From assembly GCF_963921235.1 (NCBI RefSeq), contig NC_086107.1:107386001-107450000 (forward strand): 64,000 nucleotides of DNA, in the 5' to 3' direction. The position numbers were made by a program, and so were the translations under genes. Below are positions 8,158-58,030 of the stretch, in pieces (positions within the stretch are counted from its first letter, which is position 1; every line of letters begins with the position of its first letter). The DNA comes from Mobula hypostoma (lineage: Eukaryota). A model generated the notes under the pieces. It had not been told where the DNA came from, ran no database searches, and saw only the letters and a program-made list of their open reading frames with translations.

Positions 8158-8813
8158 AGAGAGGTAGTACTGATAGATACCCCACTGCTGGAGCGGCAGT
8201 ACTGATTGAACACCCCACTGTAGAAGGGGTAGGACTGATGGAATACCCCACTGTTGGAGGGGCAAGACTGACTGGGTATCCCACTGTTGGAGGGTAGTAC
8301 TGATGGAATACCCCACTGTTGGAAGGTAGCACTGATAAAATACCCCACTGTAGGAGGGGCAGGACTGATTGGCTACCCCACTGTTGGAGGGTAGTACTGA
8401 TAAAATACCCCACTGTTGGAGGGTAATACTGATGGAATACCCCATTGTTGGAGGGTAGTACTGATGGAATACCCCACTGTTGGAGAGTAATACTGATAAA
8501 ATACCCCACTGTTGGAGGGTAATACTGATGGAATACCCCACTGTTGGAGGGTAGTACTGATGGAATACCCCACTGTTGGAGGGTAATACTGATAAAATAC
8601 CCCACTGTTGGAGGGTAATACTGATTGAACACTCCACTGTTGGAGGGTAGTACTGATAAAATACCCCACTGTTGGAGGGTAATACTGATGGAATACCCCA
8701 CTGTTGGAGGGTAGTACTGATGGAACACCCCACTGTTGGAGGGTAGTACTGATTGGGTACCCCATTGTGGGAGGGGCAGGACCGATTGCGTACACCACTG
8801 TTGGAGAGGCAGT
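8158..8813. repeat. Minisatellite, 32-bp unit CCCCACTGTTGGAGGGTA(G/A)TACTGAT(GG/AA)AATA, ~20 units
   Basis: Unit starts at 8408 and 8440 give period 32; degenerate relatives at ~9310-9600. Confidence 0.95.
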
Positions 8814-9864
8814 CACATTCTCAGTATTAATTATTTCTTATGAAAAAGCCATGATGATGGCGGTTACCATGACGCCCATACAGCTCAGGGCATCGGATTT
8901 CAGAGTTCAATTCTGACATCACCTGCAAAGAGTCTGTACTGCCTCACCGTGGAATGTGTGGGTTTCCTCCACGTGCTCTGGTTTCCACCCACAGTCCAAA
9001 AAAGACGTCCCAATTTGGTAGGTTAATTGGTCTTTGTAACTTGCCCTGTGTTTAGGTTGAATTACGGACTGCTGGGTTGGCACGGCTCGATGGACTGGAA
9101 GGAGCTACTCTGTACTACATCTCTAAATAATTTTTTTATTAACTTGCACAATTGGTCTTATTTTGCACATTGATTGTCAGCCTTTGCGCATAGTTTTTCA
9201 TTGACCCGATCGTATTTTTTTTATTTTCCTCTAAATGCCTGCAAAAGGTAGTATTTGGTATCAGGTGTGTACATTGATAACAAATTGACTTTCACTTTGA
9301 CTTGACTTTGAATGCAGCATTAGTCTGGATGGAAGGAGCTCTCGCTGTTGGAGGGGCTGTGCTGATAAAACACAGCATTATGGAAGGGGCAATACTGATG
9401 CCACACAGCACTGGCGGAGAGGCAGCATCGATGGACGGTTAGTTCTAATAGAACCAAGCACTGTCTGAAGGCCAGTGCTAATGGAATAGCTTCAGGTGTA
9501 CTGAGAGGCAGTATTTAACGTTGGTGAGACACTACTACAGGAACACAGATCTGTCAGAGGGGCAGTGCTGAGGGAGCACTGCACTATCTGACAGACACCA
9601 AGGATTGATCGGAAGTCTGGAAGTCAAAGCTTGGAGACTGAAGGCCTGCCCTGGAGCTGGAGGACTGTCCATGTGTGTGGGTGGGTGGTGTGCTGTTGCT
9701 TTGGCACTTGTGTTTGGTCTTATTGTGCTCTGCGTTGTTCCGCTGAGCATTGTAGACATGTTACGTGGTCACTGGAAAGTATGGCGACACCTGCGGGCAG
9801 CCCCCCCCAGCCTATCCTTCGGAAAAGTTGGTTGCTAACACAAGTCAGGTGTTTCAGTGTATGT

Positions 9865-11134: not shown

Positions 11135-11559
11135 GGTTAGGTTGATCTTAGAGTCAGTTAAACAGTCAGTACAACATCGTAGGCCAAAGGGCCTGTACTG
11201 TGCTGTAATGTCCAAGGTTCTATGTTCTATGTTCTAAAACAAGACTTGCATTTTATAGCGGCTATTTTGTTATATACAAAACACATTTTACACACAGCAA
11301 CCTCCCATAAAGGGAATTATGATCTTGAACAAGAAACCAGGTTGTGTGGTGTTGGCAGGAAAATAATCAGGCAAATGTGAAATCCCTTTGGTTTCCTTGG
11401 AAGGATGCTTCCAAAACACAGTGCAGAATTCCATCAGTACTGCGCCTCTCGCAATGTGGCTGCTCCAACTGTGCAGTGTCCTCTCGGAACTGCCCCTCCA
11501 ACAGTACAGAACTCCCTCAGTACTGCCTCTTGAGACTGTGGACCATCTACAGTGTCACC

Positions 11560-13345
11560 CCTCCCACAGAGCAAAGTTCCCTCACTACCAACTCTCCCAC
11601 AGCGCAAAGTTCCCTCACTACCAACTCTCCCACAGCGCAAAGTTCCCTCACTACCAGCCCCCTCACAGTGCAAAGTTCCCTCACTACCAGCTCTCCCAAA
11701 GCACAAAGTTCCCTCACTACCAGCTCTCCCACAGCGCAACGTTCCCTCACTACCAGTCCTCCCACAGCGCAAAGTTCCCTCACTACCAGCTCTCCCACAG
11801 CGCAAAGTTCCCCCACTACCACCCCTCCCACAGCGCAAAGTTCCCTCACTACCAGCCCTCCCACAGCACAAAGTTCCCTCACTACCAGATCTCCCAAAGC
11901 GCAAAGTTCCCCCACTACCACCCCTCCCACAGCGCAAAGTTCCCTCACTACCAGCCCTCCCACAGCACAAAGTTCCCTCACTACCAGATCTCCCAAAGCG
12001 CAAAGTTCCCCCACTACCAGCCCTCCCAAAGCGCAGTTTCCTCACAGCTTTCCCTCAATGCAGTTCCCTCACTACCAGCCCTCTCACAGTGCAAAGTTCC
12101 CTCACTACCAGCTCTCCCACAGCGCAAAGTTCCCTCACTACCAGCTCTTCCAAAGCGCAAAGTTCCCTCACTACCAGCCCTCCCAAAGCGCAGTTTCCTC
12201 ACAGCTTTCCCTCAATGCAGTTCCCTCACTACCAGCCCTCTCACAGTGCAAAGTTCCCTCACTACCAGCTCTCCCAAAGCGCAAAGTTCCCTCACTACCA
12301 GCCCTCCCACAGTGCAAAGTTCCCTCACTACCAGCCCTCCCACAGTGCAAAGTTCCCTCACTACCAGCTCTCCCACAGTGCAAAGTTCCCTCACTCTCCC
12401 AGCTCTCCCACAGCGCAAAGTTCCCTCACTACCAACTCTCCCAAAGCGCAAAGTTCCCTCACTACCAGCCCTCCCACAGTGCAAAGTTCCCTCACTACCA
12501 GCCCTCCCACAGTGCAAAGTTCCCTCACTACCAGCTCTCCCACAGTGCAAAGTTCCGTCACTCTCCCAGCTCTCCCACAGCGCAAATTTCCCTCTATCAA
12601 CCCTCCCACAGTGCAAAGTTCCCTCACTACCAGCCCTCCCACAGTGCAAAGTTCCCTCACTACCAGCTCTCCCACAGCGCAAAGTTCCCCCACTACTACC
12701 CCTCCCACAGCGCAACGTTCCCTCACTACCAGCCCTCCCACAGCGCAAAGTTCCCTCTCTACCAGCCCTCCCACAGCGCAAAGTTCCCTCACTACCAGAT
12801 CTCCCAAAGCGCAAAGTTCCCTCACTACCAGCCCTCCCACAGCGCAAAGTTCCCTCTCTACCAGCCCTCCCACAGCGCAAAGTTCCCTCACTACCAGATC
12901 TCCCAAAGCGCAAAGTTCCCTCACTACCAGCCCTCCCACAGCGCAAAGTTCCCTCACTACCAGCCCTCCCACAGTGCAAAGTTCCCTCACTACCAGCCCT
13001 CCCACAGCGCAAAGTTCCCTCACTCTCCCAGCTCTCCCACAGCGCAAAGTTCCCTCACTACCAGCTCTCCCAAAGCGCAAAGTTCCCTCACTACCAGCCC
13101 TCCCACAGCGCAAAGTTCCCTCACTACCAGCCCTCCCACAGTGCAAAGTTCCCTCACTACCAGCCCTCCCACAGCGCAAAGTTCCCTCACTCTCCCAGCC
13201 CTCCCACAGCGCAAAGTTCCCTCACTACCAGCTCTTGCACGGTACTGCGTTCTCTCACTACCAACCCTACCCCCACAGCGCAAAGTTCCCTCAATACCAG
13301 TCCCCCCAGCGCAGTGTTCCCTCAATTCCAATCCCCCATAGTGCA
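11560..13345. repeat. Minisatellite, 33-bp unit CTCCCACAG(C/T)GCAAAGTTCCCTCACTACCAGC(C/T), ~54 units
   Basis: Unit starts at 11581 and 11614 give period 33; variant block repeated 157 bp apart (12031, 12188); occasional 34-bp units. Confidence 0.95.
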
Positions 13346-51097: not shown

Positions 51098-53389
51098 ATA
51101 TAAACTTCCTCCATCCCTTATGCTAAAATGCATTCCCTCACAGCTCCTCTGCTACCTTACCCAACACATTCCCTGCACTGTCTCCAGCTGCCTCAGTAAA
51201 TGTAATCAAAGACCCCACCCACCCCGGGCATTCTCTCTTCTCCCCCTCCCATGGGGCAGAAGATACAAAAGTCTGAAAGCATGTATCAGTAGGCTCAAGG
51301 ACAAACTCTACCCACCCACCCCATGCCAACACCTCACAATTTCCCTTGATTCTACCTTGCACCTTATTATCTATCTACCTACGCTGCACTTTCTCTATAC
51401 CTGTTACACTTTATTCTGCGCTCTCCTGTTGTCTTACCTTATACTCCCTCAATGCACTGCTTACTGATTTGATCTGTGCCGGTATTATGTAAGCACATTA
51501 TTACATATAATATGTAAGCAAATTACTGCACCTCAAGACATCTGACAATAGTAAACCAATTCCAATTTGGCCAGCCTGTCTATCTCTTCCTCACCTGGCA
51601 ATGCAGTACTGGGATGTATATGTGCAGAGTGTGATTGTTGTGTATAGACAGAGTCTGTGGAGGGGTGGGGAGGGGGTTGGTTGCTGTGATGTCTGAACGT
51701 AGTCCTGGAGGTTGTTCAGGAGCAGGAACTGGCCTTGTTCCTCCCCACACTCATGCCACCTTTTAATAAGATCATGCCTGCTCTAGTCATGACATAGCTC
51801 CACTCCCCTGCTCAGCAGCCATCACCCCCGATAGTCCTAAAACCCATCTACATCAGCCTTGAAACGGTACAATAATTCAGCACATTTTTCTCCAAGAGGT
51901 AGTTCCGCAGCTTCACTCCTTCTGTCTTTCGTAGCTCCTTCTTAAAAGGGCAACTCCTTATTTGGAAGCTATGATCTCTAAACCCCATCCAAATCCCACC
52001 TCCACACCACCCCCCAAGGGGAAACATCTACACCTACCCTGTCATGTCCCCTCAATGAGATCACATCTCATTATTCTAAACCCGACTGAGTAGAGGTACA
52101 ATCTGCTCAGCCTTTCCTCATCAGAAAAGTTCAACTTTCAAAGTGAATGTGTTACCAAATTCTGTATGTGTCACAACTTACAACGCTGAGGTCTGTTTAC
52201 TTGCGGGGCATTCATAGTGAATACAAGAAACACAACTGAATCAATGTAAGACTGTGCACAACAGGGCAGACAAGCAGCCATATAAATGAACAAACAAACA
52301 ATAAATAAATAGATAGATTGATAGAGAGATAAATAGATAATAGGTAGATAAATCTGCAAGCAAGCCAGAAATATTGAGAACCTGAGCTGAAGAGTTCTTG
52401 AAGGTGAGTCCAAAGTTTGTGGGAACAGTTTAGTGATGGGCTGTGAGTGAAGGTATGAGAGCACTGTCATTCTAGGTGTCAGGTTACTGAAGTTGAGTTG
52501 CCTCCAATGGAAGTAGAACTCTCCTTTAAGGAAACCAAAACTGTATGCAAGTCCTCTCCAGATTACAACAGTGTCCTATTCCTGAGAGCTCTTAGTAAAC
52601 AGAACAGCTGATAAGCCAGAACTGTGGCCACCAGACAATGTATTTACATAAAAACTCAGGCCCACCAAGGTCAACATGTAGTTGAAACAACCATTCAAGT
52701 ACTGTCACAAACTATGTTCCAACATGACAGGTGTTGCTTGTGACCCTGCAGGAGCCGACAAATCCCTCTCCCAAATGCTTTATTGTATGTACGGGCGCAC
52801 AAATCAAAGGTTCAATGCAAATTGATTGTCAACATACTTATTTATCAACATATACTACCCTGAGAGTTATTTTCTTGCAGGAATTCACAGTGGAACAAAG
52901 AAATACAATAGAATCAATGAAGAACTACACGCAGGCAGATAAGTAATCAATTTGTGCCAAAGAAGGCTAACTTTGCAAACACAAAAAAGTAAATAATTTG
53001 ATAAACAAATATACAGATTATAAATAAATAGTCAAATAGTGTGAACAACAACAATAAATAAATAATACTGAGAATATGAGATGTGGAGACCTTGAAAGTG
53101 AATCCATAGCTTGTGTTCACGAATCAGTTCAGAGTTGGGTTGAGTGAAGTTATCCCCTCTGCTTCAAGAACCTGATGATTGAGGGGTAATAATGGTTCCT
53201 GAACCTGGTGGTGTGGGACTGAAGGCTCCTGTACCTCCTACCTGATGGCAGTAGTGAGAAGAGAGCACAGCCTGGATGGTGGGGGTCCATGGTGATGGAT
53301 GCTGTTTTCTAGTGGCAGTGCTCTATGTAGATGTGCAGGGCAAATCAGGTGTCCAGAGCCTGGGAAGGACCTGTAGTACAGCTACTAGG

Positions 53390-53972
53390 ACTTGATGTTT
53401 CAATCCTTATGGTAAGTTGGCACTCTCAATGTTGGCAGTGGGCTTGGAGAGGTGACAAGGAGGGAGGGTAGGTACGTCATCGGGGTCATCAGGTGGGCAC
53501 CCTCCTTCTTTGACGTTTCGTTGATAAGCCCACGATGTCTCCAGAGGGCTCAACAGTGCTACCTGGCGTCCCAGATACACCCCCCTCAGTTCCATACCCT
53601 CCTGTCTTCATCTTGCAGCCCAGTTGTTGTCTTTCCTTTTAATCCAAATCCAATTGCTGCTTTCTTCTGCTGCATTTGACAAGGACTTGATTGCTTGTTG
53701 GAGGGAGTGGCTCCTCACCCCCATCTTCTTCAATAGGCTGGTCGTAGATGTAGCAACGAATCCCCTGCATCCCACTTCTACAGGGAAAATCTTGGTCTTC
53801 CAGCCATTCTGGGCAGCTTCAGTGGCCAGTTCAGAGTACTTGGTCTTTTTCCTCTCATAAGCTTCTTCGACACCATCTTCCCATGGTACTGTCAATTCCA
53901 CAACATATGCCAGCTTGGCTGTTGTGGACCACAGGACCATAGGACCATGTCTGGCCAGAGTGTTGTAGCGTA
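53390..53972 (-). mobile_element. Hero/R2-group non-LTR retrotransposon 3' fragment (restriction-like endonuclease plus 3' UTR)
   Basis: ATTLWPDMVL..YVVELTVPWEDGVEEAYERKKTKY..FPVEVGCRGF..SNWIWIKR (PD..E, K..KY RLE motifs). Confidence 0.85.
53477..53549 (-). ncRNA. Putative non-circularly permuted hammerhead ribozyme in the Hero 3' UTR
   Basis: All three core segments (AUC, GAAA, CUGAUGA), perfect stem I GUGGGC/GCCCAC, stem III GACAU/ACGUC, extra helix GCCCUCU/GGAGGGU. Confidence 0.65.
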
Positions 53973-55629
53973 GTATATTCCTCCTTCAAACCTTCCTACC
54001 AGCACAGTCACATAATCATCATGTTGCCTTCCAAAGGCCACTTGCAAGTCTTTGATATCCACCTGTGTCCATCTTCACTTTTTATTAAGCTCCTACATCC
54101 ATTATTTCAATCAAAAAATACTAAAAAATAATGGAAAGTCAAGACTTAAGTAGGAGATGCTGGAAGTAGTCAGTAAGTGAAGCAGTATCAGTGTGGAGAA
54201 GAGAATCAATATCTCAGCTCAAGACTCTTCTGGTGGAACGAGAAGATTGAGACTATATGTTTTAATTGCAGGGGGATGGAGAGAGCATTGGGAATATCAC
54301 GATAGGGCCCAGATCAATTTTGTCAAGGTAGCAATTAAATGAACCGGCAGTTTGAAACAGAAAGAAAAAAGGTATTAAATTAAAAACGGAAAGATATAGC
54401 CAAGTTTGTGAATGGGTAGAATGTACAGGAACGGTAGGTCCCACACCACTAGGTTCAGGAACAGTTATCACCCTGAAACCATCAGGCTCCTGAACCGGTG
54501 TGGATAACTTCACTCACCACAACTCTGAACTGATTCTATGACCTGCAGGTTCACTGTCAAGGGACCTGTAACTCATGTTCTCAGTATTGATTCTTTTTTA
54601 GCTTGCACAATTTGGCATTTTTGCAGGTTGGTTGTTTGCTAGTCTTTGTTTGTTAGAGGGGTTGAACTTTCCAAAAAATCCATTGTATTTCTTTATTTTC
54701 CTGTAAATGCCTGCAATAAAATGAGTCTGGAGGTAGCATATATGGTAGTATAGGGTAGTATGTGGTAGCCTATACATTGGTAATTAATTTACTTTGAATT
54801 TTTAAGTACTGAGGGCTGTGATACTCTCATTCGGAAAATGAGGTGCTATTTCTCAACCTTATGTTGAACACTTTTGAAGTAATATTTGCAGGCAAGAGAG
54901 CTCAGAGTGGGATTTCAACAGACAGGTAAATGGAAGCTCAGGGTCATCCTTGTCAGAATCACAAATGGAATCAGGTTATCAGGTTTAATGTCATCGGCAT
55001 TAAAATCTGTTGTCTTTGCAGCAGCAGAACATTGCAATACATAATGATTAGAAAAAAATGTGAATTACAGTAATTGGTGTGTATGTTTGTGTGTGTTTGT
55101 TCATTTATATTTATTTACAATTATAAATATATATTGTATATTGAATAGTTAAATTAAAAAATAGTGCAAAAATAGAAATAAAAAGTAGTGAGGTAGTGTG
55201 TGTGGGTTCACTTGAGGGACTGAGTTATCGAGAGGGGTTGAGTGAGCTTGGACTTTATCCATTGAAGTGTAGGGGAATGACGGCTAATCTTATAGAGGTG
55301 TATAAAATTGTGAGGACCATAAATAAGGTGAATGCAGTCTTTTTCCAGGGCCAGGAAATCAAGAAGTAGAAGGGATAGTTTTAATGTGAGCGGGAAGAGA
55401 TTTACCACAAATTTGAGAGACAATTTTTTTCATCCAGAGGATGGTCTATATGGAATGAGCTGGCAGAGTAAGTGGTTGGGGCAGATTATATTAATAACAT
55501 TTAAAGGGCACTTGAACCTATGTATGGATAAGAAAGGTTAAGAGGGATATAGGACCAGCTTAAATGGGAACCTTGGCCAATATGGGTGGTTGGGTCAAAT
55601 GGCTTATCTCCATGGTGATGACTCCATTT

Positions 55630-57539: not shown

Positions 57540-58030
57540 ATCTTGGCTGAGACTCCAGTGCAGTTCTGTGGGTGTTTTGCAAGGTCAATGACATACTGCT
57601 GTCTGCTCCCTTGTGCCACTCCCGACTCGGGGAGGCAGTGACGAAAAGTAACAATACAGGACTCTTTCGAGGCTCTGTGATTGGGATAAGTACACTTTAA
57701 ATCCTTTAACGAGGATCCATTGGAGGGCAAGTCTGGTGCTAGCAGCTGCAGTAATTCCAGCTCCAAAAACGTACTGCTGCAGTTAAAAAGCACGTAGTTG
57801 GATTTTGGCATCAGGATGGCGGTCTGCCGCTAGGCAAGCTACCGTCTGTGCCAGCCCCTGCTTCTCGGCATACTTTTAGCTGAGTGTTCTGGGCGTCCAA
57901 AGACGTTTTAAAGAAGAGCAGGGCTGATTCCCCTTGTGACCTGTGCCAATGTCCCTTACATCACTTAGATGGTCACAATGGTGTCTGTGGCAGCTTACGG
58001 TGCATAAATTGGCAGTTGACATTACAGTAT
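57540..58030 (+). mobile_element. Degenerate Deu-domain SINE interrupted by an rRNA fragment
   Basis: ggctgagactccagtgcagt..gtctgc before, and aagaagagcaggg..gccaat..tgtggcagctt..aaattggc after, the 18S piece. Confidence 0.55.
57616..57909 (+). pseudogene. 18S rRNA pseudogene fragment (~295 bp, includes the 530-loop region)
   Basis: ccactcccgac.cggggagg.agtgacgaaaa.taacaatacaggactctttcgagg..gaggatccattggagggcaagtctggtgc..gtaattccagctccaa..gcagttaaaaagc.cgtagttgga; GCCGCGGTAA decayed to GCTGCAGTAA. Confidence 0.95.

Follow-up and report, generated by a model that had tools for sequence, protein, structure and literature searches.

The window analysed here is a stretch of 64,000 nucleotides (nt) from the genome of Mobula hypostoma (contig NC_086107.1, positions 107,386,001 to 107,450,000). 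Its minus strand carries, at 53969-53374, a 5'-truncated copy, about 596 nt long, of a high-copy retrotransposon without long terminal repeats (non-LTR), and within the 3' untranslated region (UTR) of this copy lies a module of about 104 nt (53585-53482) that contains the core of a hammerhead ribozyme. A sequence-only reading of this stretch had proposed a hammerhead core with a non-circular strand order in the 3' UTR of a long interspersed nuclear element (LINE) of the restriction-like endonuclease (RLE) type, and the conservation of the module in relatives of the element, described below, supports that proposal.

The homology between the window copy and 29 other genomic copies (93-97% identity) begins at 53969/53970 and ends at 53372-53380; the aligned copies put the 3' end of the element at about 53374, where the tail reads ..GCUSUACU(A). 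The open frame extends a few codons past the 5' edge of the copy at 53969 and ends in a stop codon at 53610-53608. The family is abundant, with 1601 candidate places in the genome for an initial 371-nt query and 297 exact copies of one 29-mer of the family (+2 to +30 from the predicted cleavage site). Longer copies (L006 and L059) encode a C-terminal CX2C..H..C knuckle followed by RPD, ELTVPWE and K motifs. When the C-terminal protein alignment included five metagenome proteins of 36-57% identity, the invariant columns were C66, C69, H77, C82, RPD at 176-178, E193, K209 and the ELTVP.E pattern. A Pfam search with the C-terminal part gave no match, and a search of a large protein collection returned 131 relatives, many of them 1000-1200 residues long with reverse transcriptase domain PF00078. 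Their named sources include fishes, lamprey, amphioxus and bivalves, and their records are labelled only 'reverse transcriptase' or 'R2-like'. By these motifs the host element is an RLE-type LINE, with a reverse transcriptase followed by a CCHC knuckle and a C-terminal PD-(D/E)xK-like endonuclease. Hero, a name used below, is a clade name in Repbase according to part of the text of PMC5753468.

The window's own copy is dead, being 5'-truncated and carrying a C.A mismatch that adjoins the predicted cleavage site. The longer copy L059, followed 5 kb upstream, is likewise interrupted and 5'-truncated. A second, distant family in the same genome is represented by a nearly open element with one stop in about 1090 codons (G000:C62:33547333-33550602, minus strand), 41% identical to the protein of a relative. 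The window family also occurs, at 80-99% likeness, in contigs of other organisms (four runs), where the variants within the motif are mostly of CpG type, together with A13>G (53518), a 3-base deletion (53505) and a 2-base insertion (53524). Contigs of the runs X10, X12 and X18 cease to match the window right after the last strand of the module, at about 53482-53485; the open reading frame and the module are common to the lineages, and the 3' tail varies from one to another.

Read 5' to 3', the first half of the module consists of strand P5a, hairpin P0, a stem II strand that begins with G10.1, a P4 strand, one side of a loop resembling a kink turn (k-turn), and a stem III strand that ends in U16.1 and is followed by H17. 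After H17 come a stem I strand, a linker, the other stem II strand ending in C11.1, the GAAA box, the second stem III strand, the other side of the loop, the second P4 strand, the second stem I strand, the CUGANGA box and strand P5b (Table 1). The minus-strand letters of 53549-53477 are exactly those from which the sequence-only reading was made; the motif, placed there about 60 nt past the stop codon, starts 59 nt after it. Stem I is perfect, as had been stated, with GUGGGC (53533-53528) and GCCCAC (53498-53493) forming 6 base pairs (bp) immediately 5' of CUGAUGA. Stem III, GACAU/ACGUC, is present with its single mismatch at 53536, which had been ascribed to a CpG-type change from G. Among 30 sampled genomic copies this position is G in 23 and A in 7, the window copy being one of the seven, so that the suggested repair, giving a GUC triplet and a perfect 5-bp stem III, is correct. 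Four of the 30 copies carry the majority motif, with no difference among them from stem II to A9. The fourth helix that had been drawn, GCCCUCU/GGAGGGU, is also present; it is P4, the distal continuation of stem III, and it covaries in relatives. The DNA copied beyond the predicted cleavage site is somewhat longer than supposed, about 160 nt rather than about 140 nt, when the element is taken to end at about 53374.

Table 1. Parts of the element copy and of its 3' UTR module, in window positions, listed 5' to 3' on the minus strand after the two element-level rows
Feature	Positions	Strand	Basis
5'-truncated LINE copy, ~596 nt	53374..53969	minus	homology with 29 genomic copies
Open frame, C-terminal 125 residues, restriction-like endonuclease part	53608..53985	minus	translation and alignment with relatives
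P5a, G run (53585-53580) able to pair with CCCC after A9	53582..53585	minus	4 bp only in the window subgroup
P0 hairpin UAUCUGG-GACG-CCAGGUA, between P5a and stem II	53560..53577	minus	hairpin folded at the same place in relatives
Stem II 5' strand GUUGA, G10.1 = 53554	53550..53554	minus	covariation
P4 5' strand GCCCUCU, distal extension of stem III	53543..53549	minus	covariation; 81% of cells paired, 5/5 pairs change on both sides
GGA, non-bulged side of the k-turn-like internal loop	53540..53542	minus	loop ends in GA (NGA or GA) in 17/26 parsed loci
Stem III 5' strand GACAU, U16.1 = 53535	53535..53539	minus	U16.1-A15.1 kept in 39/39
Predicted cleavage site, after C17 (53534) and before G1.1 (53533)	53533..53534	minus	positioned as in the hammerhead core, by analogy
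Stem I 3'-side strand GUGGGC	53528..53533	minus	covariation
Linker UUA joining stems I and II	53525..53527	minus	1-7 nt, A/U-rich in relatives
Stem II 3' strand UCAAC, C11.1 = 53520	53520..53524	minus	C11.1 kept in 35/39
GAAA box (G12 A13 A14 A15.1)	53516..53519	minus	invariant, 39/39
Stem III 3' strand ACGUC	53512..53516	minus	covariation
AAAGAA, bulged side of the k-turn-like loop (three nt, then GA)	53506..53511	minus	NNNGAN in 12/26 parsed loci, NNNAAN in 3 more
P4 3' strand GGAGGGU	53499..53505	minus	covariation
Stem I 5'-side strand GCCCAC	53493..53498	minus	covariation
CUGAUGA box (C3 to A9)	53486..53492	minus	core letters kept in 36-39 of 39
P5b, CCCC directly after A9	53482..53485	minus	pairs with P5a; swapped-partner control in relatives
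Remaining 3' tail of the element	53374..53481	minus	aligned genomic copies

The assignment of stem II had to be revised. The helix drawn in the sequence-only reading, UUAUCA/CGAUGA, used letters 3' of CUGAUGA in a fold resembling a published type called SGC (see below) and left the G10.1-C11.1 pair missing. UUAUC and GAUGA are indeed able to form 5 bp in the window family, but the best helices with letters 3' of CUGANGA in the seven members of the window subgroup measure 5, 4, 5, 3, 4, 3 and 3 bp and have no common register; in the six close relatives the proposed stem is thus not fixed. In contrast, UCAAC (53524-53520) pairs with GUUGA (53554-53550), just upstream of the point at which the earlier reading began, and this helix, next to GAAA, has 5 bp in 7 of the 7 members. 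Its versions in the subgroup are compensatory (GUUGA/UCAAC, GAUGA/UCAUC, GUCGA/UCGAC, GCUGA/UCAGC and one with a G.U pair), and the upstream stem II covaries across 39 sequences. Through it the G10.1-C11.1 pair is present after all, as G53554-C53520, and the CCCC after A9, taken for a mere spacer, is one strand of a further helix, P5. We therefore consider the fold as originally drawn very improbable. A variant fit to type SGC, with UCAAC/GAUGA as stem II, a CCCC bulge and a downstream 'joining helix' GGAGGG/CCCUCC, was dropped, since the upstream stem II and P4 partners covary and the letters after A9 form P5.

Copies of the family within the genome are too alike to show selection (93-98%), and relatives were therefore fetched from metagenomes by means of the C-terminal protein alignment. 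The comparison set comprised 80 loci encoding relatives of 32-74% protein identity, 57 of which have at least 150 nt after the stop codon. The CUGANGA heptamer occurred 33-400 nt past the stop in 39 of these 57 loci, compared with 7/57 antisense controls, 16/57 coding sequences and 98/1140 shuffles. A more demanding anchor, in which CUGANGA was combined with GAAA within 60 nt, a stem III that has 4 bp or more and A15.1-U16.1 as its closing pair, and an H17 other than G, with stem I left unselected, was found in 29/57 of the relatives' 3' UTRs. Stem I with at least four consecutive pairs in the fixed register was present in 28 of those 29. The antisense strands contained no such anchor (0/57); coding sequences had 2/57 and shuffles 6/1140, none of them with stem I. 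One common layout with four perfect helices could be parsed in 26 loci.

Three separate covariance models were built, one covering stem III with P4, one stem I and one stem II. The stem III plus P4 model, whose seed consisted of relatives and one family copy, gave 42 hits at E<0.001, namely the window and 41 of the 80 loci, all on the sense strand; of the 57 loci whose sequence continues for at least 150 nt past the stop codon, 39 were among them. Run against the whole 64-kb window, it gave a single hit at E<=1 (53486-53555, minus strand, E 7e-11), which is owed in part to the family copy in the seed; the hits in the relatives are independent of that copy. The second family of the same genome also has the motif (E 8e-13), and none of its helices is spelled with the same letters. 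When 25 motifs were aligned with MAFFT, the invariant columns were exactly U16.1, G12 A13 A14 A15.1, C3 U4 G5 A6 and G8 A9, with N7 free and C11.1 kept in at least 90%. Among the 39 model hits, some of which are decayed copies, U16.1, G12, A13, A14, A15.1, U4, G5 and A9 were kept in 39/39, C3 in 36, A6 in 38 and G8 in 37, and N7 was U in 17, A in 12, C in 6 and G in 4. Position 17 was C in 16, A in 14, U in 8 and G in 1 of these hits, and A in 13, U in 7 and C in 6 of the 26 perfect parses; G10.1-C11.1 was a G-C pair in 21 of the 26 parsed loci.

Pairing was counted on the covariance-model alignments of the 39 sequences, which favour the modelled helix, and the cells count sequences rather than evolutionary events. 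Stem I was paired in 95.0% of cells, with 72 cells changed on both sides against 21.9 +/- 3.4 in shuffled alignments and 38-51% pairing for slid partners. The corresponding figures were 82.9%, 38 against 10.9 +/- 2.4, and 25-50% for stem II, and 89.1%, 107 against 33.4 +/- 5.0, and 41-49% for stem III with P4. For each of the three, 0 of 500 shuffles reached a count as high as the real one. The U16.1-A15.1 pair was present in 39/39, and the 26 parsed loci contained 21 distinct versions of stem I, 15 of stem II, 15 of stem III and 21 of P4. A swapped-partner control for stem II and P4, scored as the longest helix anywhere, was weak because many loci share G/C-rich strands, and the register-fixed pair counts are used as the evidence for these two helices. 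P5 was assessed by its own swapped-partner control: the stretch that immediately follows A9 pairs with one situated 22-27 nt upstream of stem II, forming at least 9 bp in 14/38 relatives compared with 3.2% of swapped pairings, and at least 6 bp in 22/38 compared with 25%. It reaches 12 bp in L137, L142, L147 and L164 and 11 bp in L111, L116, L117 and L148, and is reduced to GGGG/CCCC (53585-53582 with 53485-53482) in the window subgroup. Across the relatives five helices change in step, I, II, III and P4 by compensatory pair counts and P5 by the swapped-partner control.

These results bear on the alternative that a G/C-patterned 3' UTR merely happens to resemble a hammerhead. In a very large scan one such copy could turn up by chance, and the near-identity of the family copies leaves that explanation some room. 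The 39 motifs, however, form 26 clusters at 80% identity, and conservation and covariation across these clusters, the strand specificity and the negative controls leave a chance origin with a negligible probability in our estimation. The motif is not a chance resemblance; it has the traits of a hammerhead catalytic core, namely CUGANGA with N7 free, GAAA, H17, three register-fixed covarying helices and the G10.1-C11.1 pair. The core is kept in relatives, and stems I and III and the fourth helix covary, which is the outcome of the conservation and covariation check that the sequence-only reading had suggested. An animal retrotransposon family seems to have kept a rearranged form of the hammerhead for a very long time.

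Between P5 and stem II lies the P0 hairpin, recognised by eye and in single-sequence folds. In many relatives (L104, L108, L111, L116, L117, L118, L135, L142, L147 and others) its loop is a self-complementary hexamer of one of three kinds, UGAUCA, UGUACA or UGGCCA, which suggests that two RNAs may pair loop to loop. Moreover, helices I, II, III and P4, which cross one another, each join a strand of the 5' half to one of the 3' half. Action as dimers has been reported for the small hammerheads that Penelope-like elements carry. One could accordingly envisage that the palindromic loops bring two element RNAs together and that strands in the 5' half of one molecule pair with the 3' half of its partner, with no knotted monomer. 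On the other hand, the P0 loop of the window subgroup is GACG, which is not palindromic, and a fold of one molecule with two junctions agrees with the linkers of 0-3 nt and with stems I and II being matched in length; we regard a two-molecule ribozyme as improbable. In one subgroup (L129, L133, L134, L137, L140, L147 and L149) the sequence that separates the stop codon from the motif contains stretches reminiscent of the D and T arms of a tRNA (for example GGUUCGAAUCC). ARAGORN found no tRNA in 13 loci, and Rfam gave no tRNA match at E<=1.

In the single-molecule fold, the linkers of 0-3 nt mean that stems I (4-7 bp) and II (4-6 bp) must both span the distance from the catalytic junction to a second junction with P4, and the two stems would lie side by side between these junctions. 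The internal loop between stem III and P4 has NGA or GA on one side in 17/26 parsed loci and NNNGAN on the other in 12/26, as a pattern of letters. The k-turn consensus, as set out in parts of PMC2790904 and PMC4382518, is a three-nt bulge followed by G.A and A.G pairs. A kink at this loop would return P4 towards stems I and II and the second junction. The backbone from A9 into stem II is not continuous: A9 is followed by P5b, and G10.1 is preceded by P0, so that on the proposed pairing both ends of the RNA would reach the core at the step from A9 to G10.1, by way of P5 and P0. Because P5 is continuous with P0 on one strand, this step could resemble the crossover of a four-way junction, with P5 and P0 stacked and the stacking of the core intact.

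Non-circularly permuted hammerheads have been described by Eckert, Friedrich, Weinberg and Weinberg (Nucleic Acids Res 2023; PMC10085705), who distinguish types SGC, CSG and GCS. That paper defines S as the cleavage site with stem III and stem I strands, G as a stem II strand, GAAA and a stem III strand, and C as a stem I strand, CUGANGA and a stem II strand; the blocks are assumed to be uninterruptible there. Nearly all of the permuted hammerheads were found in metatranscriptomes, and their in vitro cleavage rates are 0.004-0.13 per minute. They share with the LINE module the core CUGANGA, GAAA and UH, a site block flanked on one side by the C block's stem II strand and on the other by the G block (the same cyclic order), stems that are all mutually crossing pseudoknots, and a short linker of about 3 nt that joins one stem I strand to one stem II strand. 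In the types described there, CUGANGA and its stem II strand form one block, whereas in the LINE module this block is split by the entry of P5 and P0; the S block is preceded on its 5' side by the stem II strand, and CUGANGA stands at the 3' end, an arrangement that is neither SGC nor CSG nor GCS. Unlike those types, the LINE module has a closed stem III, extended by P4 through the k-turn-like loop; its stem I is unrelated in letters to the AUGUU/AACAU printed there, and it resides in the DNA of an animal-type genome, within a retrotransposon. The earlier statement that the fold class had already been reported therefore stands for the cyclic block order and falls for the wiring, which lies outside the six printed block orders and has a split C block. 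With hammerhead types I, II and III the module shares its core letters and the registers in which the three stems adjoin the core, but the strand order is unreachable by opening one loop. No Rfam 15 family, hammerheads included, matched the part of the window around the motif at E<=10 or 20 of the loci at E<=1. In a literature search that left subscription-only journals outside its scope, no description of a hammerhead in the 3' UTR of a Hero or other RLE LINE came to light, and no follow-up on non-circular hammerheads in eukaryotic genomes. Judged from sequence, the catalytic core is a known one, and what is new is its wiring and its biological setting.

Other retroelements with ribozymes are R2 and further LINEs, which have hepatitis delta virus (HDV)-like ones at their 5' ends, and Penelope-like elements and retrozymes, which have hammerheads. 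Like them, the LINE module would be a small self-cleaving motif built into a retroelement transcript and inherited with it, cleavage being assumed by analogy. They differ in position, theirs being at 5' ends or in terminal repeats, where they set transcript ends, whereas the LINE module lies about 25-125 nt past the stop and about 110-160 nt before the 3' end, with copied DNA on both sides. We know of no hammerhead core reported in an R2 3' UTR. R2 proteins bind a structured 3' UTR, and the abstract of an R2 paper states that the R2 protein 'binds a pseudoknotted' RNA. To that extent the LINE module resembles the R2 3' UTR: both belong to RLE-type LINEs and hold a conserved RNA with pseudoknots, by analogy a plausible handle for the reverse transcriptase.

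We think it rather probable that the conserved 3' UTR module is a complete hammerhead core in a new wiring, that RNA of intact copies would cleave itself, and that the fold doubles as a handle for the protein. The RNA of intact copies would be cut after C17, that is between positions equivalent to 53534 and 53533 of the window. Cleavage would be slow, reversible or conditional, since the products would stay held together by I, II, III, P4 and P5. The same compact fold is probably where the element protein grips its RNA for target-primed reverse transcription. The letters that are kept are those that hammerheads use for catalysis, N7 varies freely and G is avoided at position 17 (1/39), which is the pattern expected from selection for cutting. 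The activity of permuted hammerheads in vitro also speaks for cutting.

We consider the main rival to be a hammerhead fold that serves, without cutting, as a compact knotted platform for recognition by the reverse transcriptase, cleavage being absent in the cell or irrelevant. The module sits where RLE LINEs are expected to hold a protein-binding RNA, all sampled genomic copies were copied through the site, the likeness to the contigs of other organisms ends after P5b as if open reading frame and module were one conserved unit, and the A9/G10.1 step is interrupted by P5 and P0. A fold kept for binding alone, however, would be free to drift over a range of 32-74% protein identity, and what is kept is exactly the catalytic set, with N7 free and almost never a G at position 17. 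A platform that does not cut seems to us the less likely reading, though the two readings are not exclusive.

Several points weigh against self-cleavage in the proposed fold. Most of the 'catalytic' core letters are also needed for the fold, and their conservation alone is no proof of catalysis. On the pairing proposed here the core chain is broken between A9 and G10.1 by P5 and P0, and we know of no tested hammerhead built with such a break. We infer the two-junction, k-turn arrangement in three dimensions from the sequences, and one subgroup (L121, L144, L148 and L128) is without the k-turn-like loop. No model hit was obtained in 18 of the 57 relatives' 3' UTRs, most of them from the most distant relatives (at most 41% identity). 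The genomic copies derive from RNA that was intact across the predicted cut, and in two samples of 29 copies each, chosen by sequence 3' of the cut, copy 5' ends were scattered with no pile-up at the predicted site. One copy in the sample selected by the 3' 160 nt starts at +1/+2 of the predicted cut (L060, G000:C21:46516008-46516166); this 160-nt copy, starting 1-2 nt after the cut, has no clear target-site duplication. One copy in the sample selected by the 3' 80 nt starts at -6, 6 nt upstream of the predicted cut (L087). Nine further matches with alignments starting at query position 2-4 all run through the site and differ only in the first letters after the cut. When the 297 exact 29-mer copies were screened for non-family bases at -5 and -2, there was one match, a 2-nt deletion.

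Four head-to-tail junctions also count against cutting. Two near-full-length copies (L184, about 617-643, and L185, about 605-664, both in sense orientation) have 27 and about 55 nt of their own 3' end fused head to tail to the 5' UTR, a junction that occurs 32 times in the genome, the reversed pattern occurring 0 times; such fusions are as expected from template jumping or tandem insertion. Four junctions at the right distance from the exact 29-mer have upstream copies that run uncut through the site, and the 6 of the 32 junctions that were looked at held nothing pointing to a ribozyme that sets the transcript 5' end. Among the relatives, the L119 contig ends exactly at H17 (..CAGCGAU-A), while L144, which has the same record-name prefix, and L121 continue through; L119 is one of five contigs that end inside the motif, and such an end is expected by chance in about 7%. 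The start of L060 and the end of L119 are weak hints of cutting.

The broadest form of the self-cleaving reading, to which we attach even chances, is that the module is an active hammerhead of undescribed topology, in which a kinked stem III/P4 arm would tie the stems to a second junction and the A9/G10.1 step would have a crossover like that of a four-way junction. The module would then be an ancient, obligatory part of the 3' UTR in a widespread animal LINE clade, acting as a cleave-and-religate switch and as a reverse transcriptase handle. No non-circularly permuted hammerhead would have been known from eukaryotic genomes before it, and its wiring would add a seventh to the six thought possible. 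The hammerhead is the most thoroughly studied of the small ribozymes; its wirings were once thought to be exhausted at three and then at six, and the split CUGANGA block of the LINE module falls outside these. Searches that assume 'uninterruptible blocks' would miss instances with such a split, so that more ribozymes may lie hidden. The setting matters as well: RLE LINEs include R2, which is now being engineered as a tool to insert genes, and it is the RNA of their 3' UTR that the protein must recognise. An RNA of about 104 nt with five covarying helices and P0 opens the way to tests of how much rewiring a hammerhead core tolerates, and raises the question of what a ribozyme would do in a LINE template that is nevertheless copied whole.

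Elsewhere in the window, a fragment of eukaryotic small-subunit ribosomal RNA (rRNA) is found at 57573-57768 on the plus strand. It matches Rfam model RF01960 (113.7 bits, E 8e-31) from position 32 to 596, a large internal gap interrupting the match. It lies amid repeats about 4 kb from the element and looks like a piece of an rRNA pseudogene or part of another element. Long tandem arrays of 32-nt and 33-nt repeats occupy 8261-8836 and 11424-13000.

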